NCBI GenBank assembly: GCA_030670905.1
Contig: DAOVAR010000001.1
Coordinates: 285-64,284, forward strand
DNA length: 64,000 bases
Direction: 5' to 3'
Source of the DNA: Candidatus Bipolaricaulota bacterium
GTDB lineage: Bacteria; Bipolaricaulota; Bipolaricaulia; UBA7950; UBA9294
The position numbers and the translations under genes are program-made. Shown in pieces: positions 992 to 27,435 of this stretch; position 1 is the first letter of the stretch; each line of letters begins with the position of its first letter. The notes beneath the pieces are model-generated. The model made no database searches. It saw nothing but the letters and a program-made list of their open reading frames with translations, and was not told the origin of the DNA.

Positions 992-1027
992 TCACTAACC
1001 TCCTTGTAATTTGGGGGATGAACCTCT

Positions 1028-5382: not shown

Positions 5383-5583
5383 GAGTTTCTCCTAAATCAA
5401 GCCTTAGTGGCAGGAAACCCTGCTGGAGCGGCCTGAACCATACTCCATCTGCCCTCTGTTAACCAAGGTAAACACTAGTCACTTGTTGCATATCTGCTGA
5501 TGTGAAGTTCTCTAACCAGGCTACTACTAGAAATTCTACTGCAGAGCCTTCATCTGGGCAAGGAACCATACTTCAGGCTTGGT

Positions 5584-7005: not shown

Positions 7006-7015
7006 ATGTCCTCCG

Positions 7016-7153
7016 TTAATTAGTATGTGCTGGTCGCGGAATCCCGAATTGAGTCCTGATTCTTTCTAGAATAGTTGTCGGCGTGCTGTAAATACGTGCA
7101 ACTTCTTGATCTGACAGGACTTCGTATTTCCCACCTATTCCAGCAACCTCCAT
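7016..7153 (-). pseudogene. 45-codon remnant resembling the N-terminus of an MttB-superfamily (trimethylamine/glycine-betaine type) corrinoid methyltransferase
   Basis: My own translation gives MEVAGIGGKYEVLSDQEVARIYSTPTTILERIRTQFGIPRPAHTN, then stop. It is preceded by AAGGAGG. The pattern E-L-x-x-E-x-x-I-x-x-T-x-x-L-x(5)-G-I matches MttB-family N-termini. Only about 300 nt separate it from the upstream gene, so the roughly 1.4-kb body is missing. It is below the ORF-track size cutoff. Confidence 0.4.
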
Positions 7154-7266
7154 AAAGAGAGAACCTCCTTGCTTTGTTACGATGATCCACTTGACTCAGA
7201 AACGGCCAATGAACAACAGAAGGAAATATTTCTTGTTCTCCGTTGCGTAATATTTAAGTTTGAGCG

Positions 7267-7296
7267 AATGTTACAAAGGGGCTCATGGTTTTGTCA
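7267..7296 (-). promoter_or_regulatory. Candidate sigma-70 promoter for the methyltransferase/C1 operon (-35 TTGACA, 18-nt spacer, -10 TAACAT)
   Basis: Minus-strand sequence reads CCCTTGACAAAACCATGAGCCCCTTTGTAACAT. A second TTGACA lies 23 nt upstream. Confidence 0.3.
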
Positions 7297-7463
7297 AGGG
7301 CTCCAATTGCCCCTGTCAACACGTCTCCCAAAGTTCCCCCGAGGGTGCTGTCGTAAAAACGCAGATCTACTGGCACTAGCTATCTCAATCTCATGAGACA
7401 CGGCACCGTAGCGTGCGTTGGTGGTCTAGCAATAGGCACCTTTACGCAACCGTGGCCCGCAGT

Positions 7464-8582
7464 TCAATCAGAGTGGAGTCGCTCTAGGTCTTGGAGGGTG
7501 GACTCAAGGGCCTCAATGAACCAGACATTTTGGGCCTTGCTGCCAACTGTAACGCGAAGAAACAAAGGAAGATCATAGTCCGCGCAGGGCCGTACGATAA
7601 CACCCTTGTCCAACAACATTTCCTGGACTGCTGTGGCTTGGGGCCCAATCTTGACGAGAACGAAGTTAGTGTGGCTCGTGACATATGACAGGCCCAGGCG
7701 TTCAAATTCGTTATATAGGTAGATGCGTCCCGCGTGATTTGTTGCCACTGTTTTCTCGAGAAATGCTTGGTCTTCTAGAGCCGCAACACCCGCGGCTTGG
7801 GCGAGCAAGTTGACTGAAAAGGGCTCCTTCACCCTATTGAGAGGCGCTAGAATTTCAGGCTCCGCGATGGCATACCCCAAGCGGATACCGGCCAGACCAT
7901 AAATCTTGGAGAACGTACGCATGATCATTGTGTTAGTTTGGCCGTCTCGAATATAGCGCAGGCTATTCGGATAGTCAGGAGAATCAACCAGCTCGTAATA
8001 GGCTTCATCGAAGATGACAAGCACGTGCTTTGGCGTCTTGTCCATAAAAGCCTCTACTTCAGCTGCGGTGACAATCGTTCCGGTAGGATTGTTTGGGTTG
8101 CAGACAAAGATGAGCTTTGTCTTATCGCTAATCGCTTGAAGCATGGCTTCGAGGTCCAGTCCAAAGTTTCTCAGCGGTATCTTAACCAGCGCTGCTCTCA
8201 TCACGTGGGTGTAGATATCATAGACCGGAAATGAAGATTGACTTACGATTACTTCACTCTGTTCATCCAAGTACGCCAGGCAAGTCTGCATGATGAGCCC
8301 ATCGGCCCCATTGCCCACGGTTAGCTGTTCAGGTTCAATCCCAAGGTGCTCTGCAAGGGCCTTGAGCAGATTGTGGCTCTGTACGTCTGGATAAAGGTTC
8401 AAATCAGAAAGCCTTTCCTTTATTGCAGCTAATGCCCTAGGCGAAGGGCCAAGTGGGTTTTCGTTGGATGCCAGCTTAGTTACATCCTTGAGGCCGTATT
8501 CCCTTTGCACTTCATCAATGGGCTTACCCGGCACATATGCTTTGATGGCATTCAGGCCACGCTGTTGTCTGACATGGGTCAT
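7464..8582 (-). CDS. hisC: Class-II PLP aminotransferase of the histidinol-phosphate/aromatic aminotransferase family
   Basis: 372 aa with LASNENPLGPSP, NPNNPTG and SKIYGLAGIRLGY motifs. It is the last gene of the ior/acd operon, which suggests an aromatic or 2-oxoacid-forming role rather than histidine biosynthesis. Confidence 0.8.
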   Translation of the reverse strand: MTHVRQQRGLNAIKAYVPGKPIDEVQREYGLKDVTKLASNENPLGPSPRALAAIKERLSDLNLYPDVQSHNLLKALAEHLGIEPEQLTVGNGADGLIMQTCLAYLDEQSEVIVSQSSFPVYDIYTHVMRAALVKIPLRNFGLDLEAMLQAISDKTKLIFVCNPNNPTGTIVTAAEVEAFMDKTPKHVLVIFDEAYYELVDSPDYPNSLRYIRDGQTNTMIMRTFSKIYGLAGIRLGYAIAEPEILAPLNRVKEPFSVNLLAQAAGVAALEDQAFLEKTVATNHAGRIYLYNEFERLGLSYVTSHTNFVLVKIGPQATAVQEMLLDKGVIVRPCADYDLPLFLRVTVGSKAQNVWFIEALESTLQDLERLHSD

Positions 8583-8585
8583 CTA

Positions 8586-10625
8586 TTAGTTCCTCCTCTT
8601 TTGTATCACTCGCACGTCTCCAACTAGGACTCCCGTTGAGAACACGAATACAGGGTTCAGGTCGGCCTCTACAATCTCAGGGTAGTGGAAGGGAAGGCGC
8701 GAAAAATTGACTAAGATCTTTGCTACGGCACTTAGGTCTCGTGTTGGCTGTCCTCGTGTCCCTTCAAGGATAGGGAAGGCCTTAATCTCTCGCATCATTG
8801 CATTGGCCTCATCGTAGTCAAGTGGGGCAATGCGGAGTGAAATATCTCGAAGGATCTCGGTATAGATTCCCCCCACCCCAAAGGCAATCACCGGGCCGAA
8901 CTGCGCATCCCGTGAGAACCCGATCAGGATCTCCATGGCATCGGTGATCATTGGATAGATAATCACCCCCTGGAAATCATGCTCACCCGTTCGCTGTTCG
9001 ATCGAGTGAAATGCGGCGACTACTTCATCATCTGTGCGAATGCCAGTGATGACACCGCCAATCTCCGATTTGTGTATGATATCGTGGGACACGACCTTTA
9101 TCACCACCGGATAGCCGATCGAGCGGCTTCCACTCACGGCATCATCCATAGATGTAGCAAGCCGATATTCCGGAACCGGGATCCCGTTTTCACGCAACCA
9201 GGTCATTCCTTCCGGCTCGAGCAGAGGGCCGTCACTATCACTGAGGAGAGACCCTATCCTTGCCGGAATCTTTGGTAGCAGACGATTCTTCCTTTTGTAC
9301 TCCTCATAGGTTGCCATCTGTGAAAGTACCGTCACCGCCCGTTCCCCAGTAACGAAGTTGGGGACGCCATGCTCTTTCAGATAAGGCAGACTGAGAGCCA
9401 CCGTTCTGCCGGCCATAAAGTTTGCGGCAATGGGCTCTGTGACCGCGGTAGCAGCGCCGCAGATTCCCCGCGCAAGAGGAAGAGCATCTAGATAAGGCGT
9501 GCAGACGTTGATGGCTAGTGCGGCGTCATATTCTCCCAATGCTTCATGCAATGTTTTCTGATAGTCACTCTCAGTTCCCTCAACAGTGAGATCGATTGGG
9601 TTCTCCAATGAACAAACCGAGGGAAGAAAGGTGGAGAGCTTTGCTTGTAGGCTTGGGGTAGGTTCATCGAGGCGTAGCCCCACTGCTTCAGCTCGGTCCG
9701 CTGCGAGGACCCCGGGACCACCGGAATTAGTAACGATGACAAGACGTCGTCCCTTTACGGGGGGAAGCGTAACGAACCCTCGACACAGGTCGAACATCTC
9801 CTCTATTGTGTCCACACGAATTGCGCCACAGTGGCGGAAGGCGGCATCGTACACAGAGTCCGATCCAGCCATCGATCCCGTATGAGACAAGGTTGCCCGG
9901 TGGCCGGACACGCTACATCCCGCTTTGATCACTACAAGTGGCTTTTCTCGAGCTAGACGTTGCGCGGCCACCACGAACGCGCGGCCGTCAGAAACGCTTT
10001 CAATATATAGGGCAACAACCTTAGTATCGGAATCGTCGACAAGATAGTCAAGGAAATCGATCTCGTTGAGATCAACACCATTCCCATAGCTTGCGAACTT
10101 CGAGAACCCTAGCCCCTGCTCTTCAGCCCACGAAAGGACGGCACCCCCGAGAGCCCCGCTTTGAGTTACAAACGCTACATTGCCCTGTGGAGGATGGGTT
10201 TCCAGTGTTGGGTACAGGCGATATCTCGTGTTGATGATTCCAGCACAGTTTGGTCCGCACAAGCGGATTCCATATCGCTTTGCCACAGCCGCAATCCGTG
10301 CTTCTTCCTTGGTGTTCCCTACCTCTGAGAAGCCTGCGGTAATGATCACAGCAGCCTTCACGCCAGCTTTTCCACAATCCTGAAGAACGTCTGCCACTGT
10401 CGGAGCAGGCGAGGCGATTACAGCAAGATCAATGGACCGATCGATGTGAGAGACTGCGTCGTACCCAGGAACTCCGTGCGCGCCTTGGCCCTTAGGGTTA
10501 ACCGCACAAACATTATTGTAGCCCCCGTTAACAATCTTGCGGATCAACTCGTAGCCGAGTTTCCCTTTGGAGGTGGAACCGATTACCGCGACTCCACGAG
10601 GATAGAAGAGCTCTCTTAGGCTCAA
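8586..10625 (-). CDS. ADP-forming acyl-CoA synthetase (acetate/aryl-acetate--CoA ligase, NDP-forming), alpha and beta domains fused
   Basis: 679 aa. The N-terminal CoA-binding and succinyl-CoA-synthetase-like domains are followed by a C-terminal ATP-grasp domain. This is typical ACD architecture. Confidence 0.85.
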   Translation of the reverse strand: MSLRELFYPRGVAVIGSTSKGKLGYELIRKIVNGGYNNVCAVNPKGQGAHGVPGYDAVSHIDRSIDLAVIASPAPTVADVLQDCGKAGVKAAVIITAGFSEVGNTKEEARIAAVAKRYGIRLCGPNCAGIINTRYRLYPTLETHPPQGNVAFVTQSGALGGAVLSWAEEQGLGFSKFASYGNGVDLNEIDFLDYLVDDSDTKVVALYIESVSDGRAFVVAAQRLAREKPLVVIKAGCSVSGHRATLSHTGSMAGSDSVYDAAFRHCGAIRVDTIEEMFDLCRGFVTLPPVKGRRLVIVTNSGGPGVLAADRAEAVGLRLDEPTPSLQAKLSTFLPSVCSLENPIDLTVEGTESDYQKTLHEALGEYDAALAINVCTPYLDALPLARGICGAATAVTEPIAANFMAGRTVALSLPYLKEHGVPNFVTGERAVTVLSQMATYEEYKRKNRLLPKIPARIGSLLSDSDGPLLEPEGMTWLRENGIPVPEYRLATSMDDAVSGSRSIGYPVVIKVVSHDIIHKSEIGGVITGIRTDDEVVAAFHSIEQRTGEHDFQGVIIYPMITDAMEILIGFSRDAQFGPVIAFGVGGIYTEILRDISLRIAPLDYDEANAMMREIKAFPILEGTRGQPTRDLSAVAKILVNFSRLPFHYPEIVEADLNPVFVFSTGVLVGDVRVIQKRRN

Positions 10626-11218
10626 GACGTCCCTCTAACACGCAAGCCGGCATCAAATGCAGCCACATTGTGCTTTGCTCTACGCGGCCACCGTGCTCGA
10701 ACAACCTCCGTCATCTCGTCGGCATTGAGCACTTCGTCCAATCTTGTGTTTCCAAATGCCGCTCCAAGCACGAAGATGTTCGCGGCTACGTATCCCCCGT
10801 CGATTTTGGGAAGCTCTTTTGGATCGAGATAGATCAGTCGAGCGTTACTAACTCGGATGGCCTCCAGCACCGATTCGAGCGATGGGTAGGCAGCTTCTCC
10901 AAGCATCACCGCGGTTGGCTCCCACGCGTGACCATATAGCAGGAAGTCGCCTTCAGGCCGCGCGTACCGTACTCCCTTCAGCGCTTCAGAGCGTTCCATG
11001 GCAATCACAAGATGAGCCCCATCTTCTCGGATGTGTGGTCCTACTCCCCTTCGCCCCAATCGTAACTCGGCCTTTACGAACCCTCCACGCTGTGCCATTC
11101 CCTTCGTGGGAAGGAAACTGACTGGATGCCCCTTGTGAACAGCTGCCCGCATAATCAGGTCAGCAAGCGTCAGAATACCCTGACCACCAACGCCAACAAG
11201 GTAGATGTCGTAGCTCAT
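10622..11218 (-). CDS. iorB: Indolepyruvate:ferredoxin oxidoreductase, beta subunit
   Basis: MSYDIYLVGVGGQGILT... is a pyruvate/ketoisovalerate oxidoreductase gamma-like domain. The likely start is the internal ATG at 11218, overlapping the iorA stop (ATGA). The ORF-track start at 11266 would overlap iorA by 52 nt. Confidence 0.85.
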   Translation of the reverse strand: MSYDIYLVGVGGQGILTLADLIMRAAVHKGHPVSFLPTKGMAQRGGFVKAELRLGRRGVGPHIREDGAHLVIAMERSEALKGVRYARPEGDFLLYGHAWEPTAVMLGEAAYPSLESVLEAIRVSNARLIYLDPKELPKIDGGYVAANIFVLGAAFGNTRLDEVLNADEMTEVVRARWPRRAKHNVAAFDAGLRVRGTS

Positions 11219-13086
11219 GTTCCGTCCTCCTTCTCGAGGGCTCCTGTCGGGCAAACCGCGGCACACAGTCCGCAGCCGTTACATAGAGCGGCGTCGATAA
11301 CGATGGATTCGTGCTTAATTGACAGGGCGGGACATCCAGTGGCGGTGACACACTGTTTGCACAGTACGCACTTCTTGGAGATCAAGCGCACATTTCCCGT
11401 GCGTTTGCCCTGCCGCCTTACTTGGATGGCACATTCGCGACGGGAGAGGACAACCTTTACCCCCGGAAGGGTGAGACATCCTTCGATGGTGGAGGTTGCT
11501 CCCTTTAGATCGTATGGATCGATGACAAAGAATTGGTCTACCCCGAGTCCTGGAATCACCCGCGCAAGGTCGATTCGGCGTCCCCCCGTCCGTTGGAATG
11601 TCTGATCCGTGCCTGGATTCACCTGCATCCCCGTCATGCTTGTCCATCCGTTGTCCATGATGATAAGAGTCAATGGAGTCTGGTGCTGAATCGCGTTGAG
11701 CAATCCCGGAATCCCGGCGTGGAAAAACGTTGAATCTCCAATAGTAGCGATTACCGGTGTCTTAACCCCTCCATGAACGTAGCCTTGTGCCAGACTGACA
11801 CTTGCTCCCATGGAGACCTCCGTCCACACCGTGTTAAACGGTGGGTTCATTCCGAGGATTGTACACCCGATGTCGCCAGTGATGATCACCTCGTCTTTGT
11901 CAAGATCTAGATTCTGGATCGCTTGATTGATGGCCATATAGGTTCCGCGGTGGGGACATCCGGCGCAGACGGTAATTGGACGTCGAGCCGCAAGTGTCTC
12001 TGTTGCTCTATTCCCTTTGAAGCGATCCCCAGGGATGCCTAATCTGAGCGCTATATTGAGCCCTTGTAGCACATGATCAACATCGTACTCCCCCACGCGG
12101 CTTAAGGGCCCATCATCAAGTTTGCCGATGATCAGGCCGGCGAATCCGGTCCTATGTGCTTCGATGTGAAGACCGCGTTCAAGGTGCGGTTCTAACTCTT
12201 CCAAGGTAAGGATCGACTTGCAGCGAGCAAACAGCTTTTGTACATCTGCTGCTGGAAATGGAGTTGTTGTCACTGTACGCAAAATCGAGACCTTTGTCTT
12301 GTCGAATCCATACTCGACAGCAAGGTCAAACGCCTCTTCCAGATACGCCACCGCTGCCCCAACAGCCACAATTCCAAGGCCGCCGGGGTTTTCAGCTAAT
12401 TGCAAAGAGTTTAGCTCCATTTCCTGTATGACCTCGCTTGCCTTTTCGAGGCGGGCAATCACATCCCGGTGTTGCGTGATACAGATAGCGGCGCCGGCTT
12501 TGGTGTACTTGGCGATGTTCCGCTCGAGGATTGGTATGCGGTCGGCAGGCGGTAGCGGATCAGCTATCTGTAGGGCTGTCTTGGCATTGGCAATCGAGGT
12601 AACCAACCTAATTAGGACTGGTGTCTTTACGCGTTCCGAGAGCTCAAAAGCTACCTGCGTCAACCGATAGGTGTCCCTTATCGAGCTTGGTTCGAGCATT
12701 GGCAGGTCCGACATCAAGGCAAATCCACGCGTGTCCTGCTCAGCCATCCCCGCGCTAGCGCCCGGATCGTCGGCAACGTAGATCACTAGTCCACCATTAC
12801 ATCCGGAATAAGCGATAGAGATTAGCGAGTCGTAGGCTACATTCAGCCCCGACATCTTCATCGTACACAGAGCTCGTTGGCCGGTCCATGCCGCTCCGGC
12901 GGCTATTTCAAAGGCAACCTTCTCGTTTACACTCCACTCCACATATCTACCGGGAAGATCCATCGCCAACAGGCTCGTCAGCGCGCCGGTGGAGGGGGTA
13001 CCTGGATAACCGGTGACTACCTTTACACCGGCCTGTAGCGCCCCATAGGCAAGGGCTTCATTGCCACTCAGTACCTTAATTTGCAA
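11215..13086 (-). CDS. iorA: Indolepyruvate:ferredoxin oxidoreductase, alpha subunit (TPP-binding, with C-terminal 2x[4Fe-4S] ferredoxin domain)
   Basis: 623 aa with TPP-binding GDIGC and GDSTFFHAG motifs. The C-terminus has CVLCKQC...CPALS and CNGCGLCAAVCP cysteine motifs. Confidence 0.9.
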   Translation of the reverse strand: MQIKVLSGNEALAYGALQAGVKVVTGYPGTPSTGALTSLLAMDLPGRYVEWSVNEKVAFEIAAGAAWTGQRALCTMKMSGLNVAYDSLISIAYSGCNGGLVIYVADDPGASAGMAEQDTRGFALMSDLPMLEPSSIRDTYRLTQVAFELSERVKTPVLIRLVTSIANAKTALQIADPLPPADRIPILERNIAKYTKAGAAICITQHRDVIARLEKASEVIQEMELNSLQLAENPGGLGIVAVGAAVAYLEEAFDLAVEYGFDKTKVSILRTVTTTPFPAADVQKLFARCKSILTLEELEPHLERGLHIEAHRTGFAGLIIGKLDDGPLSRVGEYDVDHVLQGLNIALRLGIPGDRFKGNRATETLAARRPITVCAGCPHRGTYMAINQAIQNLDLDKDEVIITGDIGCTILGMNPPFNTVWTEVSMGASVSLAQGYVHGGVKTPVIATIGDSTFFHAGIPGLLNAIQHQTPLTLIIMDNGWTSMTGMQVNPGTDQTFQRTGGRRIDLARVIPGLGVDQFFVIDPYDLKGATSTIEGCLTLPGVKVVLSRRECAIQVRRQGKRTGNVRLISKKCVLCKQCVTATGCPALSIKHESIVIDAALCNGCGLCAAVCPTGALEKEDGT

Positions 13087-13149
13087 TTGACTCCTCCATC
13101 TGCCTGCAGTGTTGTTCCTCGCCTAATACTCTTCACTACATCGATTTGC

Positions 13150-15477
13150 TCATCCTTTCTTGGTGTGATCAAGGGCGGCAAGGACCCTCTCCGGTGTCAA
13201 TGGTAGGTTGTGGATGCGGACGCCTATGGCGTTTGCCACAGCGTTCGCCACCGCTGGAGCAACCGGTGTTAGCGCAGGCTCGCCAATCCCTTTGGCGCCG
13301 AACGGACCGACGCCTGTTCCCGACTCTAGGATGATCGCCTTCGTGGTAGGAAGATCCTTTGCTGTGGGGATCAGATACTCGGACAATGAAGGCGTCCGGA
13401 TTACGCCATCCTTGACTTGTACCTCTTCCATGAGAGCGTAGCCGATTCCCTGGGCGCTTCCGCCTTGGATCTGTCCCTCAACGGCGATTGGATTGAATGC
13501 CCGACCCACATCATGGCATCCGACGGACTTGAGCACTGTAATCTCACCGGTCTTGGTATCCACCGCCACCTCAATGGCGTGCGCACTGAAGGTAAAGTCT
13601 GGAAAGATGTCTCCTTGGAGGTTCTCGGGGTTGAGCTTATCAGCGAATGGAGCCGCAAACAGAGCTAGGTGTTGCAGCTTCAGCCCATCAGCGGCGCACA
13701 TCTTGCTCAGATCCGCTAGCGAAAGCCATTGCTGCGGATCGCTCTTGATGAACACCTTGTTCTCAGCTAGATCCAGGTTGTTGGGCTTTTCCCTAAAATG
13801 CTCTGCCGCGCGATCGAGCAACACTTCCCGCACCATCTTGGCCGCCTTGAGCGTGGCATTGCCGGACATGTAGAGCTGCCTGGTAGCAGTTGTTGTGCCT
13901 GCCAGTGGTGTGACCGCCGAATCTGAGTTGTAGAAGGTCACGTCTGTGAGTGACACCCCCAGCACTTCGGCAGCGATCAGACACAGACTGTTTGCCTGAC
14001 CTGCGCCCAGGTCGGGTGCGCCACACCGCACCACGATTGTGCCATCTTGCTCGATACCAACCCAGGAACGTGAGGTATCATGGAACCACATGATCCGACC
14101 ATAGCTCTGCATCGTGGTGGCAAAACCCTGGCCCATCTTGATTGCATCGTCAGAAATGTTCTCTTTCTTTCCCAGAGCTGCCAGCGCTTGTGTGGCTTCT
14201 TCCTCTAGCCAAACCGCGCTCTTGATCTGCTGGCCGATAGCGTTGGAGTCACCGGTCTTCAGATAGTTGATCTTGCGGAACTCAAGCGGGTCCATCGCTA
14301 AGGCTTTTGCCATCTCATCCATCTGTTGCTCGTACGCTACGGCAGCCTGCGCACCTCCGAAGCCTCGAAATGCACTGGCAAAAGGATTATTAGTGGCAAC
14401 CGAGACACTATCAACGGTAAGGTTTTCGATTCGATAAGGGCCGCATGAGGTGACAGTAGCGTAGAGAAGGACGTAGGGACTGAGATAGGGGTAAGCCCCT
14501 GAATCAGAGATCATGTTGATCTTGGCGCCGGTGATGCGGCCATTGTTCTTCACGCCGGTGCGGTGAGTGATGATGAACGGATGGCGCTTGGAATGTGCGA
14601 GGATAGATTCCTCTCGCGTGTACGCCAACCGCACAGGGCGCCCTGTTTCTTTTGTTAGGAGCGCCAGGAAGATCTCCACGGTAATGTCCTCCTTACCACC
14701 AAATCCGCCTCCAATCATAGTACCTCGAACGCGTACCTTGTTGTGTGGTACCCCTACGGCTTGAGCAATCGATCGGAAGTGTTCTACCACCTGTGTGCAG
14801 ACGCGGATGTTGATCACGTCTTGATCATCCATCCAGGCTACACCGGCTTCTGGTTCAATATAGGAGTGATCAAGGAATGGCATGCGAAAGGTGTTCTCCA
14901 CGATCAGATCAGCCGAGGCCAACCCCGCTTCCGCGTTCCCCTTGCGGATCTTCCAGCTGGAGACGATATTGTCTGGCTCGTGGATTATTGGCGCGCCTGG
15001 CTTCATCGCTTCGAGTGGGTCGAAGACGCCTGGCAGCGCATCGTATTCAATCTCGATCAGTTCAATGGCTCGCTCTGCGATGGCAAGGGTCTCCGCCGCG
15101 ACAAGTGCGATAGGCTCACCAACGAATCGTACTCCGCGTGTGGCTAGCACCGGCGCATCTGACTCCTTGCGCCGTTCCTGTCCCGTCTGGCCAGGCATGT
15201 CGGTGATTAGTTTCCCGTCTGGCAAGTCATCTGCTGTCAACACACAGGCCACGCCCGCAAGCGCCCGTGCCTTGTTCACATTCAACTGCTTGATATGTGC
15301 TGAGGGTTCACTGCTGCGAAAGACCTTGGCGTGAAGCATGTTTGGCATTGTGAAATCACCGGCGTAGACGGTTGCGCCTACTGCCTTGCCGAGCGCGTCG
15401 ACGCGCCGCAATGGTCTCCCGACTTGGCGAAGGAGAGGAAGAGCTGGCTGGGGTAGCGCTTTGCCCTTCGCCGTCAT
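13150..15477 (-). CDS. Molybdopterin-binding large subunit of a xanthine-dehydrogenase-family hydroxylase (enzyme A)
   Basis: 775 aa with the GGGFGGK signature and a C-terminal FGAKGIGEPAL active-site Glu motif. Confidence 0.85.
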   Translation of the reverse strand: MTAKGKALPQPALPLLRQVGRPLRRVDALGKAVGATVYAGDFTMPNMLHAKVFRSSEPSAHIKQLNVNKARALAGVACVLTADDLPDGKLITDMPGQTGQERRKESDAPVLATRGVRFVGEPIALVAAETLAIAERAIELIEIEYDALPGVFDPLEAMKPGAPIIHEPDNIVSSWKIRKGNAEAGLASADLIVENTFRMPFLDHSYIEPEAGVAWMDDQDVINIRVCTQVVEHFRSIAQAVGVPHNKVRVRGTMIGGGFGGKEDITVEIFLALLTKETGRPVRLAYTREESILAHSKRHPFIITHRTGVKNNGRITGAKINMISDSGAYPYLSPYVLLYATVTSCGPYRIENLTVDSVSVATNNPFASAFRGFGGAQAAVAYEQQMDEMAKALAMDPLEFRKINYLKTGDSNAIGQQIKSAVWLEEEATQALAALGKKENISDDAIKMGQGFATTMQSYGRIMWFHDTSRSWVGIEQDGTIVVRCGAPDLGAGQANSLCLIAAEVLGVSLTDVTFYNSDSAVTPLAGTTTATRQLYMSGNATLKAAKMVREVLLDRAAEHFREKPNNLDLAENKVFIKSDPQQWLSLADLSKMCAADGLKLQHLALFAAPFADKLNPENLQGDIFPDFTFSAHAIEVAVDTKTGEITVLKSVGCHDVGRAFNPIAVEGQIQGGSAQGIGYALMEEVQVKDGVIRTPSLSEYLIPTAKDLPTTKAIILESGTGVGPFGAKGIGEPALTPVAPAVANAVANAIGVRIHNLPLTPERVLAALDHTKKG

Positions 15478-15959
15478 TCTTGAGCCTTCTGTTGCATCAT
15501 CTTCTTCGCTGCCATCTTGATCGCACTGATGATCTGAGCGTAGCCGGTGCAGCGGCAGAGGTTTCCCGAGATCGCTTCGCGGATCTCAGTCTCGGAAGGG
15601 TTCGGGTTCTCATCAAGCAGCGCCTTCGCTGCGATGATCATCCCTGAGGTGCAGTACCCGCACTGGACAGCGCCTGCATCTGCAAAGGCTTCCTGTAGCG
15701 AGTGAGGGCTCTCCATTGTTCCTAATCCAGCATTTGTGAGGATCCGCGCACCATCTGCTTGCCAGGCGAGGACGAGGCAACTATTGATGACTTTCCCATT
15801 CAGCTCTACAGCACAGGCTCCGCAATCTCCCTTTTCACATCCGTTCTTAACATCTGTATAGTTCAGGCTTCGCAGCGCTTCAAGCAAGGTTACATTAGGA
15901 AACAGTGTCACCTGATGCCGACGACCATTGATATTAAGAGTGATAACCTTTGCCTTCAT
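15474..15959 (-). CDS. [2Fe-2S]-binding small subunit of the Mo-hydroxylase (enzyme A)
   Basis: 161 aa with CEKGDCGACAV and QCGYCTSGM...CRCTGY motifs (CoxS/XdhC-like). Confidence 0.9.
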   Translation of the reverse strand: MKAKVITLNINGRRHQVTLFPNVTLLEALRSLNYTDVKNGCEKGDCGACAVELNGKVINSCLVLAWQADGARILTNAGLGTMESPHSLQEAFADAGAVQCGYCTSGMIIAAKALLDENPNPSETEIREAISGNLCRCTGYAQIISAIKMAAKKMMQQKAQE

Positions 15960-16834
15960 TAGTGTTTCTTCTCCTTCGTGCCTTTGGCTAGGTTTGTTAG
16001 CAGACGTCTTACTAGCGCTGTTATCACCCGCTTCCTATAGGCTGCTGATCCACGGATATCACCAATAGCCTGCGTTGCCTCCGAAGCCAGCTGCGCGGCC
16101 TGGGCGATGACCTCTGGAGTCAATGGTCCCCCATCCAGGAAGTCTTCGGCAGCGGCGACGCGGATCGGCGTGGGGGCAACCGCTCCAAGCGCGATACGTA
16201 CTTGGTCGCAATCCCCCGTGTCCTTGCGGTGTAGCATTACGGCAATGCTTAGCACGGAGATCGCGTCCGCCTTACGTAAGCCGAGCTTGCGAAACACGCT
16301 GACACTCCCTTCGGGTGGAATAGGCCAGCGAATAGCAGTTATCAATTCTTTGGGGTGACGAACCGTCTTGCGCACGCCGGTGATGAATTCCTTCAGTGGA
16401 ACGGTGCGTTTTGTATCCTTACTTAACAATTCTACCTTGGCACCAAGGACAAGGAGAGGTGGCGCGGCATCCGCGGCTGGGGAACCATAGGCAAGGTTAC
16501 CTCCAATTGTTGCACGGTTGCGAATCAGTGGGTTGGCAAAGACTGTCGCAGCCTGTTGCAGTGCTTGGCCGTGCTTAGCGATGAGCACATTGCGCTTTAG
16601 GTCTGCGATTGTTACTGCACTGCCCACATCTGCATAACCATCTTCCACATGAACGCCACGCAACTCAACCAATCCACCAATGTTCATCAACGTCTGAGGA
16701 CGAGAGAGTCTTCCACGCAGGTCGACAAGAAGGTTTGTCCCACCGGCAAGTGGCATGACTGTAGAACTCTCATCCATCATCTCAAGGGCCTCCGGTAGAG
16801 TTCTTGGCATCAAGAGCTCAAACTCTGGCAGCAT
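15959..16834 (-). CDS. FAD-binding medium subunit of the Mo-hydroxylase (enzyme A)
   Basis: 291 aa CoxM-like protein with AGGTNLLVDL and a CO-dehydrogenase flavoprotein C-terminal domain. Confidence 0.85.
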   Translation of the reverse strand: MLPEFELLMPRTLPEALEMMDESSTVMPLAGGTNLLVDLRGRLSRPQTLMNIGGLVELRGVHVEDGYADVGSAVTIADLKRNVLIAKHGQALQQAATVFANPLIRNRATIGGNLAYGSPAADAAPPLLVLGAKVELLSKDTKRTVPLKEFITGVRKTVRHPKELITAIRWPIPPEGSVSVFRKLGLRKADAISVLSIAVMLHRKDTGDCDQVRIALGAVAPTPIRVAAAEDFLDGGPLTPEVIAQAAQLASEATQAIGDIRGSAAYRKRVITALVRRLLTNLAKGTKEKKH

Positions 16835-18290
16835 CCGACCCTCCTTCTCTTGTCCCCTCGGCGCAAGATTCTACGGCACGGACGATACTTGCATACCCCG
16901 TACAACGACAACGATTTCCCTTTAAGTAGTCTCGGATCTCATCTTCTGTAGGTGATGGTATCTCTGCGAGGAGTTTCTTGCTCATCATCAGCATCCCCGG
17001 CGTACAGTACCCACACTGGAACGCGTTGTGATCGATGAACGTCTGCTGTAAGGGATCAAGTTCACCGTCTGGCCTGGCAAGACCTTCAACGGTGACGATT
17101 TCACTCTCATCGGCGGTAACAGCGAGCACTAAACAGGCAAGGACCGGCTCTCCGTTGAGCCACACCGTGCACGCTCCGCACTCGCCGATGCCGCAACCGT
17201 ACTTGGGCCCGGTCAGTTCCAACCGTTCTCGTAACACATTGAGCAGCAACTCGTTTGGAGCCACATCGAGCTGGTGATTTACTCCATTGACGAGAATAGT
17301 AATTGAGTAGTTCTCATTAGCATTCACTCGGAATGACACGGGTACCTTGTGAGATAGTGAGGATGTCTCAACAGGCTTCGCTTCCCGCAACTCGCCCGCC
17401 CGCTCCCATGCTTTACATAAGGCGTCCTGAGTCAAAGGCGTGGCAACCTCGCGACGGTACCACGCGCTTGAACGTGCATCATCAACTGGCAGGATCGCCT
17501 TGGACGCGACCCGTCCCGCCCTAAGAGCGAGCTTGGCATCGAACGTCTTACCAATTAGCATTTTTTCTGCCTCTGGAGCACGTAGAACTGTTGGCCCTAC
17601 TGAACCATACGCTAGTCGGCAATCGACAACGCGTTGTTCGTCACGAACAATCACCGCGGCAACGCTGATCTTGGCAAGATCGGCGCGCACTCGTGACAAT
17701 TTTAGAAACGCACTTCCCGTATTTGGTTTCGCAATAGGGAGCCGCACAGCGGTGAGGATTTCCCCTTCCCTTAGCTTGACTTCCCCCGGCCCGAGCAGGA
17801 GTTCAGCAATGGGTAAGACCCGTTCTCCGTGTGGGCCAGCCAGCACCACTTTCGAATCGAACGCTACAAGCGCTGGAACCGTATCCGAGGCAGGGGACCC
17901 ATTACAGAGGTTCCCACCGATCGTTCCCATTATCTGGATTTGCGTGGAGCCAAAGGAAGCACAAGCTTCAGCAAGAGCGGTGTAAGTCTCTTGTATCTGT
18001 GGTGCGGTGCTGAGCTGACGAACAGTGGTGAGAGCGCCGATCAAAAATACCTCGTCCTTATTATTCATCCCTTTGAGTTCAGGCAGGTTGGCGATATTGA
18101 TAACGCATCGTGGCGCCCTCTGCTCCATCTTCATCCATACGAGGAGATTGGTACCTCCGGCAAGCACCTCGGCGTCTTTACCAAACTCTTGTAAGCTCCC
18201 AATCGCTTCTTTGAGCGTTGCTGGCTGCACGTAGTCGAACCTGTGCATGAGGAGGTGTGTATTGGTCATATTGTATCTATTCTTGCTCAT
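16818..18290 (-). CDS. Fused FAD-binding and [2Fe-2S] subunit of a second Mo-hydroxylase (enzyme B)
   Basis: 490 aa. Residues 1-290 are CoxM-like (AGGTNLLVWM). Residues about 330-490 are CoxS-like (CGIGECGACTV, QCGYCTPGM...CRCTGY). Confidence 0.8.
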   Translation of the reverse strand: MSKNRYNMTNTHLLMHRFDYVQPATLKEAIGSLQEFGKDAEVLAGGTNLLVWMKMEQRAPRCVINIANLPELKGMNNKDEVFLIGALTTVRQLSTAPQIQETYTALAEACASFGSTQIQIMGTIGGNLCNGSPASDTVPALVAFDSKVVLAGPHGERVLPIAELLLGPGEVKLREGEILTAVRLPIAKPNTGSAFLKLSRVRADLAKISVAAVIVRDEQRVVDCRLAYGSVGPTVLRAPEAEKMLIGKTFDAKLALRAGRVASKAILPVDDARSSAWYRREVATPLTQDALCKAWERAGELREAKPVETSSLSHKVPVSFRVNANENYSITILVNGVNHQLDVAPNELLLNVLRERLELTGPKYGCGIGECGACTVWLNGEPVLACLVLAVTADESEIVTVEGLARPDGELDPLQQTFIDHNAFQCGYCTPGMLMMSKKLLAEIPSPTEDEIRDYLKGNRCRCTGYASIVRAVESCAEGTREGGSDAARV

Positions 18291-20526
18291 GCATACGTTC
18301 CTTCTTTTTCAAGGCGATGAGAACCTTCTCCGGCGTGATTGGCAGCTCATAGAACCTAATGCCAATAGCGTTGCGGATTGCATTGGCATAAGCTGCAGCA
18401 ACTGGATTCATCGCCGCTTCACCAATCCCCTTCGCCCCAAATGGGCCACTTGGCTCGTAGCTATGCGCAAAGCTAGCAGCAAGAGCATCGATACGCGGAC
18501 TCTCACTGATTCCGGAGGTCTTGCTATCGATCCAGTAGCCGCCTGAGACGAGCTGTCCATCCGTGTTCCAAGCATTGCTCTCGTATAGGGCGTAGCCCAT
18601 ACCCTTAGAGAGACCACCCTCTAGCTGACCTATTGCCAGCTTTGGACAGATCACAGTGCCACAGTCACTTCCCATAACTGCCTTTACTGTGTGCACTAGG
18701 CCGGTCCATGTGTCGACCTTGACTTCCACAAAGACGGTTACATAAGCAGGAGGACAGTTGAGTGGTCTGTAGCTCTCCACTGCGGCAATCGTCTTCCAGC
18801 TTTCACTCCAGCAGCGAGTCGCAAGTTCTGACAGTGTCATCGTTCGATCCGGTATCGAAGAAGTATAGACAACACCCTGCCCAAGCTCCTCATCGAGTCT
18901 TAAGGTAAGTGTGTGTGCTTGCATATTGAGGTAGTGTGCCGCCGTTGTGAGGATTTCTTTACGCAGCGCTGTTGCAGCCTTGAGAGCCGCTCCACCTCCG
19001 GCATATACCCCGCGGGTGGCGTGAGTGACACAATCGTAGACAGTGGAGCAAGTCTCGGCCGGGGCCATGTTCACCTTGTCTAGTGGCACGCAAAGCGCCT
19101 CGCTCACGATTCTGTTGAGGGCCTCTAACGTTCCTCCGCCGTGGTCCATCAGGGCAGTGATAACATCTACCGAACCGTCGACGTTCAGCTTGACCATCGC
19201 TCCGGAGAAGTCAATAACGTCTCCGGGTTGTGGCGCGCCGGCGCCAGAAGTATGGAATCCTCGCCCCAATCCGATACCAGACCGGAAGCGACCTGTCCCT
19301 GAGCCAGATTTTGGGCGGTCATTCCATCCAATGGCTTCTGCTCCTCTATGGAGGAGTTCGGGTACTCCATCGCTGTTAACGATTGAGCGGACGAGTGGAC
19401 CCTGTCCCCAGAAGGTGTCTCCCATTCCTACGTAGTTCTTCAGTCGTAGCTCAAGCGAATCGATGTCGAGCTTTTCGGCAAGTTCCTCGATCAGCGATTC
19501 GGTAGCGAATGTCACTTGTGGATTGCCGAATCCCTGCATTGCGCAAGAAGGGGCTTTGTTTGTATACACAGCGATTCCATGGTAGCGGATGTTGGGGATT
19601 CTGTAGAGGGAGACGAGCCAACCGACAGTGACCCCTAGAAACGAGTAGGCTTGAATGTTATGCGCTCCAATATCGACGATCGCCTCCATCTTCGCGGCGG
19701 TTAGTGTACCATCCTTCTTTGCCGCCAATTGTAGGTGGATTTGCTCGCCGTAACGGGTATGATCGTGTGCATCTTCCTCTCGCGTCAATGTTAGCTTGAC
19801 CGGCCGATGTGCTTTTAGGGCCAGCGCAGCACAGATCGGAATCGGCGGGTTCATCTGGATGCTTGATCCGAAGGTTCCGCCGATTGGCACACGCTTGACG
19901 TTTACCTTAGAGAGTGGTATGTCGAAGATTTGCCCAAGTAGGATTCGCACATTGTGAATCGACTGAGTTGTTGGCCATACAGTAAGTCCACCATTTGGCT
20001 CGGGGCGGCAGATGGCTGATTTCGTCTCCATCTGTGCGTGATAGACCTTGCTTAGATTGAACGTTCCCTCAACAACAAGGTCTGCTTCCGCAAACGCCCG
20101 GTCAACATCTCCTTGTTCAATGCTCCGATCACAGGCGATGTTGCGCTCAATTTCGATCTCGTTTTCGCCCCACAGGACTGTGTCGTAGATTGGGGCAGCG
20201 CCTGGTTTCATTGCTTCGATCGGGTCGGTGAGCACAGGTAAGACGTCGTACTCAACCTTGATTGCACGCGCCGCTTTTTCGGCAAGCTCTTCTGTGTCCG
20301 CGGCAACGGCGGCAACTGCCTCTCCCATCCTCCGTACCTTATCGGCAAGTACGTAGTGATCCTTGTGCAGAGCCGAAGGAATGGTGATGATACGCTCGTT
20401 GTAGCGCACGCTGGGGATGTCATTAAATGTAATCACAACTGCGCCCATCGCCTTAGCCGCGGTTGCATCGACGCGTTTGACGCGAGCATGAGCATAGGGG
20501 CTGGCAAGGACGCGTCCATGAAGCAT
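18277..20526 (-). CDS. Molybdopterin-binding large subunit of the second xanthine-dehydrogenase-family hydroxylase (enzyme B)
   Basis: 749 aa from the first ATG, with a C-terminal FGAKGIGEAAM motif. The conserved N-terminal homology (VGKANLRKDGIARVTGQERYTVDISLPH) continues upstream to 20640 in frame but without a start codon. An ATG at 20636-20638 is reachable by a 1-nt shift. Confidence 0.85.
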   Translation of the reverse strand: MLHGRVLASPYAHARVKRVDATAAKAMGAVVITFNDIPSVRYNERIITIPSALHKDHYVLADKVRRMGEAVAAVAADTEELAEKAARAIKVEYDVLPVLTDPIEAMKPGAAPIYDTVLWGENEIEIERNIACDRSIEQGDVDRAFAEADLVVEGTFNLSKVYHAQMETKSAICRPEPNGGLTVWPTTQSIHNVRILLGQIFDIPLSKVNVKRVPIGGTFGSSIQMNPPIPICAALALKAHRPVKLTLTREEDAHDHTRYGEQIHLQLAAKKDGTLTAAKMEAIVDIGAHNIQAYSFLGVTVGWLVSLYRIPNIRYHGIAVYTNKAPSCAMQGFGNPQVTFATESLIEELAEKLDIDSLELRLKNYVGMGDTFWGQGPLVRSIVNSDGVPELLHRGAEAIGWNDRPKSGSGTGRFRSGIGLGRGFHTSGAGAPQPGDVIDFSGAMVKLNVDGSVDVITALMDHGGGTLEALNRIVSEALCVPLDKVNMAPAETCSTVYDCVTHATRGVYAGGGAALKAATALRKEILTTAAHYLNMQAHTLTLRLDEELGQGVVYTSSIPDRTMTLSELATRCWSESWKTIAAVESYRPLNCPPAYVTVFVEVKVDTWTGLVHTVKAVMGSDCGTVICPKLAIGQLEGGLSKGMGYALYESNAWNTDGQLVSGGYWIDSKTSGISESPRIDALAASFAHSYEPSGPFGAKGIGEAAMNPVAAAYANAIRNAIGIRFYELPITPEKVLIALKKKERMHEQE

Positions 20527-20882
20527 GTGGGGCAGGCTGATGTCAACTGTGTAACGTTCTTGTCCAGTGACGCGTGCAATCCCATCCTTGCGGAGGTTTG
20601 CTTTTCCTACAGTATCAAAGTTTCTTATCTTCCACCATCCTTATTCGGTGGACGATCTTCTACCTTTTGCCGGACTAAGCAGTTCTATTCTACTTAGCTT
20701 AGCTGCTTGGTAATCGCGCTATTCTTTCATTCCGATTTTTCTATTCTACGCTTTCTTATATTCCCGAGCAACAATGTACACGCCCTATTGCCGAGAGGAG
20801 GGTTGTGAAGGGGCATTTGGAACAGATGCTATCGCGGTCGGGTAAATTGACGAGTGAGTCATTGTTACAGGAGATTCTCTGG

Positions 20883-22250
20883 CTAGAGATTGTAGTAAAG
20901 TGAGAATTCGTATGGATGTGGACGCCTGCGAACCTGGCTCAGTTCGTCCCTCTTTGCGTTGACCCAGTGAGCAATCTGTTCGGCGCTGAATACTCCGCCC
21001 ACCGTAAGATAATCATGATCCTCTTCTAGGGCGGACAGGGTGTCAGCAAGATTGGCAGGAACTTGCTCTATCTTGCTTGTCTCTTCGATTGAGAGATCAT
21101 AAAGATCTTGGTTATAGGGTCCAAATCCAAGCTTCTCCGCATTTAAGTTATTCTTGATCCCATCGATGCCGGCCATCAGCATGCCGGCATATGCAAGGTA
21201 AGGATTACATGTAGCGTCCACTGTTCTTAGCTCGATTCTTCGCTGCTGTGGTGTTGCATAACTAGGAATACGAATTGCAGCGGAACGATTTCCCTCGCCG
21301 AAGGCCAATGAAATCGGTGCTTCATATCCAGGGACAAGGCGACAGTAGGAGTTTGTTGAGGGATTAGTTAGTCCCAACAAGCCACGCCCATGTGAAAGGA
21401 TTCCCCCTATGTAGAGTAGGCCTAATTCGGAGAGCCCTCCATCCTTGTCGAAAATGCTTCTTCCTTTGTTTGCGAGATACTGATGAACATGCATACCGTT
21501 ACCATTTTCACCAAGAATTGGTTTGGGCATGAATGTAGCGGTCAATCCAAATTCCACTGCTACATTTCGAGTGGTGTTCTTAACAATAAGCGTGGTATCG
21601 GCCATTCTTAGCAGGCCGTCAAACCCCAACTCCATTTCCAGTTGCCCCAGAGGGCCTACCTCGTGATGATGGTACTTAACAGATACTCCTGTTCTTTCCA
21701 GTCGCCTACAGATCTCATTGCGTAGGGCAAATAGTTGATCTTCGGGGGGACAGATATGATAGAAAGAGCGCTCAGTGTGCTTGTTCATTGGACTGAGCGT
21801 ATAGAATGCCTCGCTAGCCTTGCTACTGTAGTCGGCTTCAGAGAAGACATAGAACTCGAATTCCGCGCTCATCATTACAGCTTCGGCGATACCTTCAGAG
21901 ATGAGAAACTGCTCGGCCCGTCTGGCGACTGCACGAGGATCGCCAATAAATGGGCCTTTTCCCTCCGCAAGGTGGATGTCACATATCAGAGAGAGGACCT
22001 TTTCCCCACGATAGCAAACGACAGTAGCTGTGTTGAGATCTGGGCGCAGGACCATGTCGCTTCCTTCTACATTCGTGTAGCCGAAGTTTGAGCCGTCGAA
22101 CGGAATACCGTTGTCGATTACGTGTTGAGTGAATCTACTGATTGGAATCGTGATATGTCGCCAGCAACCGACTAAGTCTGTAGCCTTGAAGTCGATGAAG
22201 TCGATGTCCTCTTGTGTAACCAGTTCTTCTAGAGAAGAGAAGCTAAACAC
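20883..22250 (-). CDS. glnA: Glutamine synthetase, type I
   Basis: 455 aa with NGNGMHVHQ and an ATP-binding region. GTG start with AAGGAGGT 5 nt upstream. Confidence 0.9.
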   Translation of the reverse strand: MFSFSSLEELVTQEDIDFIDFKATDLVGCWRHITIPISRFTQHVIDNGIPFDGSNFGYTNVEGSDMVLRPDLNTATVVCYRGEKVLSLICDIHLAEGKGPFIGDPRAVARRAEQFLISEGIAEAVMMSAEFEFYVFSEADYSSKASEAFYTLSPMNKHTERSFYHICPPEDQLFALRNEICRRLERTGVSVKYHHHEVGPLGQLEMELGFDGLLRMADTTLIVKNTTRNVAVEFGLTATFMPKPILGENGNGMHVHQYLANKGRSIFDKDGGLSELGLLYIGGILSHGRGLLGLTNPSTNSYCRLVPGYEAPISLAFGEGNRSAAIRIPSYATPQQRRIELRTVDATCNPYLAYAGMLMAGIDGIKNNLNAEKLGFGPYNQDLYDLSIEETSKIEQVPANLADTLSALEEDHDYLTVGGVFSAEQIAHWVNAKRDELSQVRRRPHPYEFSLYYNL

Positions 22251-27260: not shown

Positions 27261-27435
27261 CACTGAATCACTTCCTTCGAGCTCTGATTCCATTCTCCAG
27301 AGTATATTCTCTTTCTTTTGTTCTCTTGTTGCAATAGCCGTTTCGAAGTGACGGGAACAAGAGGCATTGGCTCGGCGTAGCCTAATGTGGGGGAAACTCT
27401 GCGATAACGATTGCTGGGATTCATCGCAGGGCTGA

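Follow-up and report, generated by a model that had tools for sequence, protein, structure and literature searches.

Introduction

In the peptide-fermenting Thermococcales, an aminotransferase acts on histidine and an ADP-forming synthetase shows high specificity for 2-(imidazol-4-yl)acetate; the histidine 2-oxoacid oxidoreductase expected between them is described as 'still not known' (PMC9986279, PMC3942289). These three enzyme families are all represented in the nine-gene operon reported here, which occupies positions 7464-20526 (minus strand) of a stretch of 64,000 nucleotides from Candidatus Bipolaricaulota bacterium (GenBank assembly GCA_030670905.1, contig DAOVAR010000001.1, positions 285 to 64,284; hereafter the window, whose numbering is used throughout for its features). 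Similarly to the peptide fermentation of Thermococcales, these enzymes would form one ATP, at the substrate level, for each amino acid. However, whereas the arylacetate is excreted by Thermococcales as an end product, the three-enzyme module is here associated with two molybdenum (Mo) hydroxylases, and relatives further possess enzymes for the opening of the ring. From the gene context, we propose, with a probability of about 45%, that histidine (imidazole) is degraded anaerobically by two modules, both encoded by the operon and acting one after the other. The more general statement, that the hydroxylation of an N-heterocycle is coupled to the aminotransferase, indolepyruvate:ferredoxin oxidoreductase (IOR) and ADP-forming acyl-CoA synthetase (ACD) and, in relatives, to the cleavage of carbamoyl-aspartate, appears probable to us.

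Gut anaerobes possess a 2,8-dioxopurine pathway in which two enzymes of the xanthine dehydrogenase (XDH) family, both selenium-dependent, operate together; it comprises XDH, DOPDH, YgfK, SsnA, HyuA, YgeW, YgeY, YgeX and YqeA (bioRxiv 10.1101/2025.04.24.650524). As may be the case in the operon family studied here, this pathway combines them with cyclic amidohydrolases, a carbamoyltransferase providing carbamoyl phosphate for ATP synthesis and a YqeB-type maturation. It differs by its substrate class and by the absence here of YgfK, YgeX, YgeY, SsnA and a nearby carbamate kinase; furthermore, the present carbamoyltransferase is of the aspartate carbamoyltransferase (ATCase) type, and IOR, ACD and the aminotransferase are added. 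A tblastn search with the proteins of the E. coli 2,8-dioxopurine cluster retrieved only unrelated Firmicutes and Spirochaete loci, and neither the window nor the Chloroflexota loci described below. In the anaerobic indoleacetate (iaa) pathway of Aromatoleum, a heteroarylacetyl-CoA is converted into its 2-oxo derivative prior to the opening of the lactam (PMC5214803, PMC8360864), a logic that our proposal shares. The iaa pathway differs in that it relies on a CoA ligase, a lactamase of the HyuAB type driven by ATP, a B12 mutase and a specialised acyl-CoA dehydrogenase, and has no carbamoyltransferase; none of the iaa cluster genes (HyuAB, B12 mutase, IaaF, CoA ligase, CoA transferase) was found among the recurrent gene families of the 87 loci that we compared, HyuAB being encountered only next to MoA-only orthologs of other phyla.

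As for the ring opening, the carboxymethylhydantoinase (EC 3.5.2.4) of Clostridium oroticum converts 5-carboxymethylhydantoin into N-carbamoyl-L-aspartate, and the ErtD step of ergothioneine degradation similarly converts hydantoin-5-propionate into N-carbamoyl-glutamate. An aerobic Pseudomonas pathway also leads from imidazoleacetate to aspartate; it differs by its O2-dependent monooxygenase and by proceeding via formiminoaspartate. We know of no route that joins Mo hydroxylases with these hydantoinase or imidazoleacetate steps and, to our knowledge, the only well-known routes of histidine degradation are Hut and, aerobically, the imidazoleacetate monooxygenase. In agreement with a first-pass annotation of this DNA, which had not recognised a described pathway, none was found in the literature on the gene combination, on carboxymethylhydantoin, imidazoleacetate or imidazolepyruvate, or on imidazole-acetate together with molybdenum.

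Organisation and Conservation of the Operon

The nine co-directional open reading frames (ORFs) of the operon, identified from the ORF list and a Pfam/NCBIfam scan, all belong to the families assigned to them by the first-pass annotation. Hydroxylase B is made of its Mo subunit MoB (18277-20526, 749 aa; Ald_Xan_dh_C, MoCoBD_1 and MoCoBD_2 domains) and of an electron-transfer subunit in which FAD and 2x[2Fe-2S] modules are fused (16818-18290, 490 aa; FAD_binding_5, CO_deh_flav_C, Fer2, Fer2_2). Hydroxylase A comprises the FAD subunit FAD-A (15959-16834, 291 aa; FAD_binding_5, CO_deh_flav_C), the 2x[2Fe-2S] subunit FeS-A (15474-15959, 161 aa; Fer2, Fer2_2) and the molybdopterin subunit MoA (13150-15477, 775 aa; Ald_Xan_dh_C, MoCoBD_1, MoCoBD_2). 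They are followed by iorA (11215-13086, 623 aa; POR_N, TPP_enzyme_C, Fer4) and iorB (10622-11218, 198 aa; POR) for the alpha and beta subunits of an IOR-type 2-oxoacid:ferredoxin oxidoreductase, by a fused alpha-beta ACD (8586-10625, 679 aa; CoA_binding, Succ_CoA_lig, ATP-grasp_5) and by a class I/II aminotransferase of the HisC family (7464-8582, 372 aa; Aminotran_1_2; TIGR01141, 344.9 bits for a cutoff of 276.55).

From MoB to the aminotransferase, the successive junctions measure -14, -17, -1, -4, +63, -4, -4 and +3 nt; the genes do overlap, as first annotated, but by 1-17 nt instead of 4-17 nt and with two gaps. The start of iorB, previously placed at 11266, lies at 11218, where its ATG overlaps the iorA stop codon (ATGA), with GAAGGAGG upstream; the resulting 198-aa size is also that of iorB in two other assemblies of the same species (designated L086 and L087). 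The 63-nt gap between MoA and iorA carries a GGAGGAG ribosome-binding site ahead of the TTG start codon of iorA, and a terminator/promoter scan detected in it no terminator-like hairpin or promoter, the counts being at or below the shuffled expectation, which is a weak negative. A transcript boundary before iorAB, which the first-pass annotation regarded as potentially fatal to its interpretation, therefore has no sequence sign in this gap.

This nine-gene operon is real and is conserved over three phyla. First, L086 and L087, which are 96% and 98% identical to the window at the DNA level, have an identical layout. Second, among 87 loci with MoB orthologs, which were scored with a protein panel, MoA follows MoB in 37 of the 39 where there is room for it, and IOR is located at most 3.5 kb from MoA in 19/25 loci (just beyond this distance in L137 and L146). 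The close homologs come from metagenome-assembled genomes (MAGs) whose annotation reads Chloroflexota, Anaerolineae or Thermoflexia. Third, a scan of genome contigs with MoA, which was dominated by the generic motif GGGFGGKE, gave L006, L011, L016, L018 and L046. The L011 locus of a Thermococci MAG contains the MoB-FAD-FeS-FAD-FeS-MoA block with IOR and ACD (51% identity for MoA, 53% for MoB), and the L018 locus of a Coprothermobacterota MAG contains both Mo enzymes with aminotransferases. Fourth, the HisC-family aminotransferase occupies the same operon position in L002, L005, L086, L087 and L166. Because the gene order of the window recurs in dozens of independent contigs, and the Mo pair in L011 and L018, the linkage is ancient and is not a chance juxtaposition. 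The comparison of genome contexts, which had been suggested as a check, was thus favourable to the first-pass interpretation: the association of the Mo pair with IOR, ACD and the aminotransferase is conserved in Chloroflexota and recurs in Thermococci.

The Two Molybdenum Hydroxylases

Both hydroxylases have the hallmarks of the XDH/Mo-hydroxylase superfamily, namely a hammerhead domain with MoCoBD_1/2, two [2Fe-2S] clusters, an FAD subunit of the carbon monoxide dehydrogenase type and the catalytic Glu. MoA and MoB are 32% identical in pairwise alignment and the two FAD modules 33%, so that these are two different enzymes, as the first-pass annotation had it, and both are complete and anciently diverged. 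The FeS-A subunit possesses eight cysteines in the canonical pattern. The MoB protein and its FAD/FeS partner probably constitute a self-contained enzyme, since in the L166 locus (501-10104) they are directly followed by iorAB, ACD and the aminotransferase, hydroxylase A being absent, and since MoB is fused to its FAD/FeS subunit in the 1272-aa protein P0154. In a Chloroflexota MAG (L002, 8815-9406), FeS-A is separated from MoA by an insertion made of a fragment of an FeS subunit and of a gene of the 23S_rRNA_IVP family.

Neither MoA nor MoB reached any equivalog cutoff of NCBIfam: MoA scored 515 bits with PucD (cutoff 784) and 510 bits with XdhA (cutoff 780), and MoB scored 442 bits with XdhA. 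Active-site residues were compared by aligning MoA, MoB and their orthologs with the 795-1285 fragment of bovine XDH, checked against PDB 1fo4. The MoA protein keeps the equivalents of Glu802 (E263), Arg912, Phe914 and Glu1261 (E733), and has a Tyr (Y339) at the position of Arg880. The MoB protein retains the equivalent of the catalytic Glu1261, with Ile at the Glu802 position and Val at the Arg880 position, the latter being Val, Cys or Ser across its orthologs. Its signatures are GG[TS]FGSSIQ, which lacks Glu802, and CAMQGFGNPQ, in which Gln replaces the otherwise family-wide Arg912. The active-site residues of MoA and MoB are alike in the orthologs from Chloroflexota, Thermococci, Coprothermobacterota and Alphaproteobacteria. 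Neither subunit possesses the whole purine-binding pair Glu802/Arg880, of which Arg880 is presumably needed for xanthine binding, and their scores are below the cutoffs, so that we rejected their assignment to xanthine dehydrogenase proper; the clustering with xanthine dehydrogenases that would have contradicted the first-pass interpretation was not observed. It is worth noting that XdhA of E. coli K-12 (L171) itself has Gln and Ala at the Glu802 and Arg880 positions, and is also devoid of the canonical xanthine-binding pair.

These data bear on the possibility that the two enzymes hydroxylate purines or pyrimidines, the tie with IOR and ACD being indirect, via a shared regulon, a shared ferredoxin or the use of end products. 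Such a function would agree with the top NCBIfam matches being the XdhA and PucD models, with the Glu802 equivalent kept in MoA, with the FTCD-type genes present in the window and with the example of the 2,8-dioxopurine pathway, in which two selenium-dependent Mo hydroxylases and amidohydrolases work together with a carbamoyltransferase that leads to ATP. Yet it is difficult to reconcile with matches so far under the equivalog cutoffs (e.g., 515 vs 784 bits), with the replacement of Arg880, across phyla, by Tyr in MoA and by Val, Cys or Ser in MoB, and with the absence of YgeW, YgfK, YgeX, SsnA, guanine deaminase and purine permease from the Chloroflexota loci. As it also fails to account for so close and old an association with IOR, ACD and the aminotransferase, we regard it as quite improbable.

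The best full-length PDB match of both Mo subunits (325 bits for MoA) is the alpha subunit of 4-hydroxybenzoyl-CoA reductase (4-HBCR) from Thauera aromatica (PDB 1rm6), which, like MoA, has Tyr at the Arg880 position but lacks the Glu802 equivalent that MoA keeps. Among solved structures, MoA is nearest to the nicotinate dehydrogenase of Eubacterium barkeri, a selenium-dependent enzyme (PDB 3hrd; 288 bits for NdhL and 226 bits for NdhM), with which it shares the GGGFGGK and FRGFG motifs. Nicotinate dehydrogenase differs from MoA in being split into L and M subunits, whereas MoA is a single polypeptide, in having Leu instead of Glu after GGGFGGK, and Arg instead of Tyr at the Arg880 position; moreover, no nicotinate fermentation genes surround the operon. 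Membership in the 4-HBCR family was rejected because neither FAD subunit possesses the cysteine insert for the [4Fe-4S] cluster of 4-HBCR: FAD-A has a single Cys and the FAD domain of hydroxylase B has no Cys cluster. The 4-HBCR equivalog scores are 488 and 393 bits vs 995 for the alpha subunit (about 40-50% of the cutoff), and 129 and 119 bits vs 405 for the beta subunit.

The kinship with 4-HBCR alpha and the Tyr that it shares with MoA could also mean that one or both Mo enzymes work in reverse, in the manner of 4-HBCR or urolithin dehydroxylase, as reductive dehydroxylases using ferredoxin reduced by IOR, for example on a tyrosine-derived acyl-CoA, for the sake of redox balance; gut anaerobes do have dehydroxylases of the XDH family (PMC11760930). 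This is very unlikely for the following reasons. First, the [4Fe-4S] insert is missing and the equivalog scores are about half of the cutoff. Second, by established chemistry, the CH2 group between the thioester and the ring would rule out a mechanism of the 4-HBCR type. Third, the carbamoyltransferase and the hydantoinase of the related operons would be left without an explanation.

Both Mo hydroxylases are probably selenium-dependent. For MoA, this dependence is plausible because yqeB, which serves the maturation of selenium-dependent Moco (TIGR03309, 350 bits for a cutoff of 220), is located between MoA and iorA in L090 and L103, the latter locus also having a YqeC-like gene. No YqeB or YqeC maturation gene occurs in the 64-kb window.

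Fuller Operons in Relatives

The related loci exhibit two layouts. The layout of the window (type II; about 16 loci) runs GntR, MoB to MoA, iorAB, ACD and aminotransferase. The other one (type I) runs IclR, an optional aminotransferase termed AT2, a carbamoyltransferase, MoB to MoA, an amidohydrolase, optional GntR and aminotransferase genes, iorAB and ACD, and 24 such loci contain the carbamoyltransferase, which is the gene immediately preceding MoB in 24 of the 59 loci with upstream sequence. This protein passes the equivalog for aspartate carbamoyltransferase (350.5 and 367.9 bits vs 236.95), displays the full aspartate-binding signature (STRTR, HPTQ, RxQxER and HPLP motifs), and scores 42 bits with the model of the knotted YgeW (cutoff 453-500). 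Its clade (at least 72% identity) has numerous members, many of them on contigs equal in length to those of the MoB matches. Three more members were examined: two belong to a Mo operon and the third to a different carbamoyl context that includes a CN-hydrolase, so none of the three is part of a pyr operon. In L174 (2821-19583), AT2 and ATCase occur without Mo enzymes, beside HGD-D and a BcrAD activator (2-hydroxyacyl-CoA dehydratase), an Opp-type ABC transporter and a CN-hydrolase, which suggests a separate catabolic context producing carbamoyl-aspartate. In L173 (3976-9120), a third enzyme of the XDH family (a 934-aa FeS and Mo fusion with an FAD subunit) and MttB lie immediately upstream of the IclR-ATCase-MoB operon.

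The amidohydrolase located between MoA and iorA in relatives is similar to D-hydantoinase/dihydropyrimidinase (386 bits for a cutoff of 393), and also resembles allantoinase, dihydroorotase and the hydantoin-5-propionate amidohydrolase ErtD. The AT2 protein, adjoining the carbamoyltransferase, matches Pfam Asp_aminotransf, and in L152 a phosphoenolpyruvate carboxykinase (PEPCK) gene lies between ACD and AT2. The L011, L137, L146, L138 and L152 loci repeatedly contain genes for LarA-like racemases, for 2-hydroxyacid dehydrogenases of the Ldh_2/GlcD type and for ABC transporters of the Liv type. They also surround the MoA-only operon, with ACD, of a Clostridia MAG (L016; LarA-like, 2-hydroxyacid dehydrogenase and Liv-type genes). 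The LarA-like and Ldh_2/GlcD-like enzymes (L011, L137, L152, L016) would fit an entry into the pathway at the level of an (imidazolyl) 2-oxoacid.

Proposed Route for Histidine

The chemistry of the aminotransferase-IOR-ACD module is known at the family level. The IorA protein has the thiamine pyrophosphate site and the two [4Fe-4S] clusters of the two-subunit IOR architecture, with a TIGR03336 score of 563.5 bits, under the cutoff of 650.9; IorB scores 120.7 bits with its equivalog (cutoff 205.8). The ACD protein, which carries the CoA-binding, succinyl-CoA-ligase-like and ATP-grasp_5 domains in one chain, is an NDP-forming acyl-CoA synthetase that reached no substrate-specific equivalog of NCBIfam, and is predicted from its family to make ATP by substrate-level phosphorylation.

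We propose that the HisC-like aminotransferase would convert L-histidine into imidazolepyruvate, which the IOR-type oxidoreductase would convert into imidazol-4-ylacetyl-CoA with the reduction of ferredoxin, and that ACD would then generate imidazole-4-acetate and ATP. The two Mo hydroxylases, with either the free acid or its CoA ester as substrate, would each introduce one water-derived oxygen, at C2 and C5 of the ring, to generate hydantoin-5-acetate. In relatives, the hydantoinase-like amidohydrolase would turn hydantoin-5-acetate into N-carbamoyl-L-aspartate, which the ATCase, operating in the catabolic direction, would split into aspartate and carbamoyl phosphate (a second site of ATP formation), while AT2 and, in one locus, PEPCK would lead from aspartate to oxaloacetate and phosphoenolpyruvate (PEP). 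The identity of the substrate, the order of the steps and the carbon attacked by each hydroxylase are inferred.

This histidine model is favoured because it gives every conserved gene a role in one pathway. By parsimony, the conversion of imidazole-4-acetate into a hydantoin would require exactly two hydroxylations, and exactly two hydroxylases are present. The hydroxylation of imidazole C2 is analogous to that of xanthine C8, and 5-carboxymethylhydantoin is hydrolysed to N-carbamoyl-aspartate by the EC 3.5.2.4 enzyme. The first-pass annotation had suggested a ring-hydroxylating extension of the aminotransferase-IOR-ACD fermentation, for example towards 2-oxoacids or aldehydes derived from indole, imidazole or purine, an idea now reinforced by the conserved linkage and by the ring-opening and ureide-cleaving genes of relatives. 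It had also considered the substrates of the Mo enzymes as not deducible from the sequence, which holds in part: the accessory genes of relatives point to the imidazole of histidine in preference to indole or purine.

A different use of the same enzymes could start from imidazole-propionate or urocanate, hydantoin-5-propionate being opened to N-carbamoyl-glutamate, and glutamate being processed via 2-oxoglutarate and succinyl-CoA to succinate. Mo oxidases oxidise imidazolone-propionate to hydantoin-propionate, the amidohydrolases also match the ErtD models (237 and 344 bits), and the aminotransferase-oxidoreductase-ACD trio could in principle handle glutamate. However, these ErtD scores are far under the cutoffs of 600-650, the carbamoyltransferase is marked as an ATCase both by its complete signature for aspartate binding and by its equivalog score, the oxidoreductase has the IOR architecture and not that of the 2-oxoglutarate type, and hutH, hutU and urocanate reductase are absent from the loci. 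We therefore give this route very little credence.

The main competitor of the histidine model is a route for tryptophan or indoleacetate, in which the aminotransferase, IOR and ACD would produce indoleacetyl-CoA or indoleacetate, a Mo hydroxylase would form the 2-oxoindole derivative and a lactam hydrolase would open the ring, as in the iaa pathway. The iaa hydroxylase is reportedly an enzyme of the XDH family. The IOR of the operon belongs to the canonical indolepyruvate enzyme family, and the best full-length PDB match of both Mo subunits, 4-HBCR, acts on a CoA ester. Moreover, MoA-only orthologs (51-58% identity) in Alphaproteobacteria and in an unclassified MAG adjoin an ATP-dependent hydantoinase A/B, a family in which '2-oxoindoleacetyl-CoA gamma-lactamases' have been predicted for indoleacetate metabolism (PMC5214803). 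On the other hand, an oxindole has no ureido group, which would leave ATCase, AT2 and PEPCK without a role; a single hydroxylation would suffice, whereas two enzymes are conserved; the Chloroflexota loci have no iaa-type B12 mutase, acyl-CoA dehydrogenase or CoA-transferase; and the ring-opening enzyme of the operon is a metal-dependent amidohydrolase of the hydantoinase type, not HyuAB. On balance, we consider the tryptophan route unlikely.

Several observations weigh against the histidine model. First, the carbamoyltransferase and the amidohydrolase are absent from the 64-kb window and from the type II (GntR) variant (about 16 loci), and no carbamate kinase was found within 10 kb in any Chloroflexota locus. 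Second, in L002, L003, L088, L089, L100, L105, L117, L163 and L173, the operon is repeatedly flanked by methyltransferases of the MttB family and by a corrinoid protein of 45-53% identity, which are not explained by the model; they may reflect a methylated substrate (e.g., histidine betaine or N-methylhistidine) or plain synteny. Third, the hydantoinase A/B adjacent to MoA in Alphaproteobacteria resembles the logic of anaerobic indoleacetate degradation. Fourth, the formiminotransferase-like and cyclodeaminase genes of the window suggest that a Hut-type histidine route may already exist in this organism. Fifth, the IOR enzymes have been characterised on arylpyruvates and are not known to act on imidazolepyruvate, nor do we know of a substrate-specific signature for any of the enzymes of the operon.

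Start of MoB

The 5' end of the operon had been placed at 20643, but this position is that of an in-frame TAA (20643-20641), the first in-frame ATG being at 20526. No ATG, GTG or TTG occurs in frame between these two codons, as verified by translation in three frames. The intervening region (20527-20643, minus strand) is an in-frame coding extension of MoB, RNFDTVGKANLRKDGIARVTGQERYTVDISLPH; it includes the conserved N-terminal 34 codons, which are upstream of the first in-frame ATG and still protein-like, and RKDGIARVTGQERYTVDISLPH in the MoB N-terminus matches the relatives except for one residue. Two candidate starts can be proposed: an ATA codon (20628-20626) preceded at 9 nt by AAGGA, or the ATG at 20638, which is out of frame and would call for a +1 shift at the downstream CTT TGA (20620-20615), a motif similar to that of RF2. 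The protein P0122, which is 94% identical to MoB, has an ordinary ATG start (MDQSTFRVLGK). As the start region is identical in the three assemblies (window, L086 and L087), a sequencing error was rejected, and the gene must be functional since MoB is the best conserved protein of the operon among these assemblies (99%). Neither the MoB leader (20400-20950) nor the rest of the window contained a riboswitch according to Rfam, the only match being a tRNA. We do not claim a regulatory RNA in the leader, the 99% identity of which among the three assemblies is little above the genome-wide 96-98%.

Genes Surrounding the Operon

The aminotransferase gene is followed by a 458-nt gap, with a promoter-like site (7297-7268), and then by a corrinoid methyltransferase set (1028-7005, minus strand) encoding a pterin-binding methyltransferase, a corrinoid protein, a RACo activator, FolD and a split MTHFR. 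A formimino-tetrahydrofolate cyclodeaminase gene (FTCD_C; 24122-24760, plus strand) lies 3.6 kb upstream of the operon, and a formiminotransferase gene (FTCD_N + FTCD; 46644-47558, minus strand) stands at the end of the dcw cluster; they are components of formimino transfer, as in Hut-type histidine or clostridial purine degradation. Two adjacent short ORFs (53012-53688, plus strand), the first of which is an Amidohydro_1 fragment with chlorohydrolase/deaminase-like motifs, resemble a decayed amidohydrolase gene. Finally, a 337-aa ORF (26700-27713, minus strand) has EF-P domains in residues 156-336 only, and the 150 additional residues at its N-terminus are probably artefactual, owing to the choice of the most upstream start.

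Significance

The enzyme families and the logic of the pathway are known, whereas the way in which the genes are combined, the substrate that we infer, the clade of catabolic ATCases and the active-site variant of MoB are new. Tentatively, and judging from gene content, the operon family may stand for an undescribed and widespread anaerobic mineralisation of the histidine imidazole, with two ATP, a new MoB subgroup having Gln in place of Arg912 and a reversed, catabolic ATCase. It occurs in hundreds of contigs of Anaerolineae, which are among the most abundant uncultured fermenters of sediments and digesters. If the proposal is true, a water-dependent ring oxidation by Mo/Se enzymes would explain how imidazole can be mineralised without O2, and a second ATP would be gained at the substrate level from ATCase running in reverse, an enzyme that would thereby acquire a catabolic role. 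Two large clades of 'xanthine dehydrogenase family proteins' that lack an annotation would also receive functions, and the histidine 2-oxoacid oxidoreductase that is missing in peptide-fermenting archaea would be provided.

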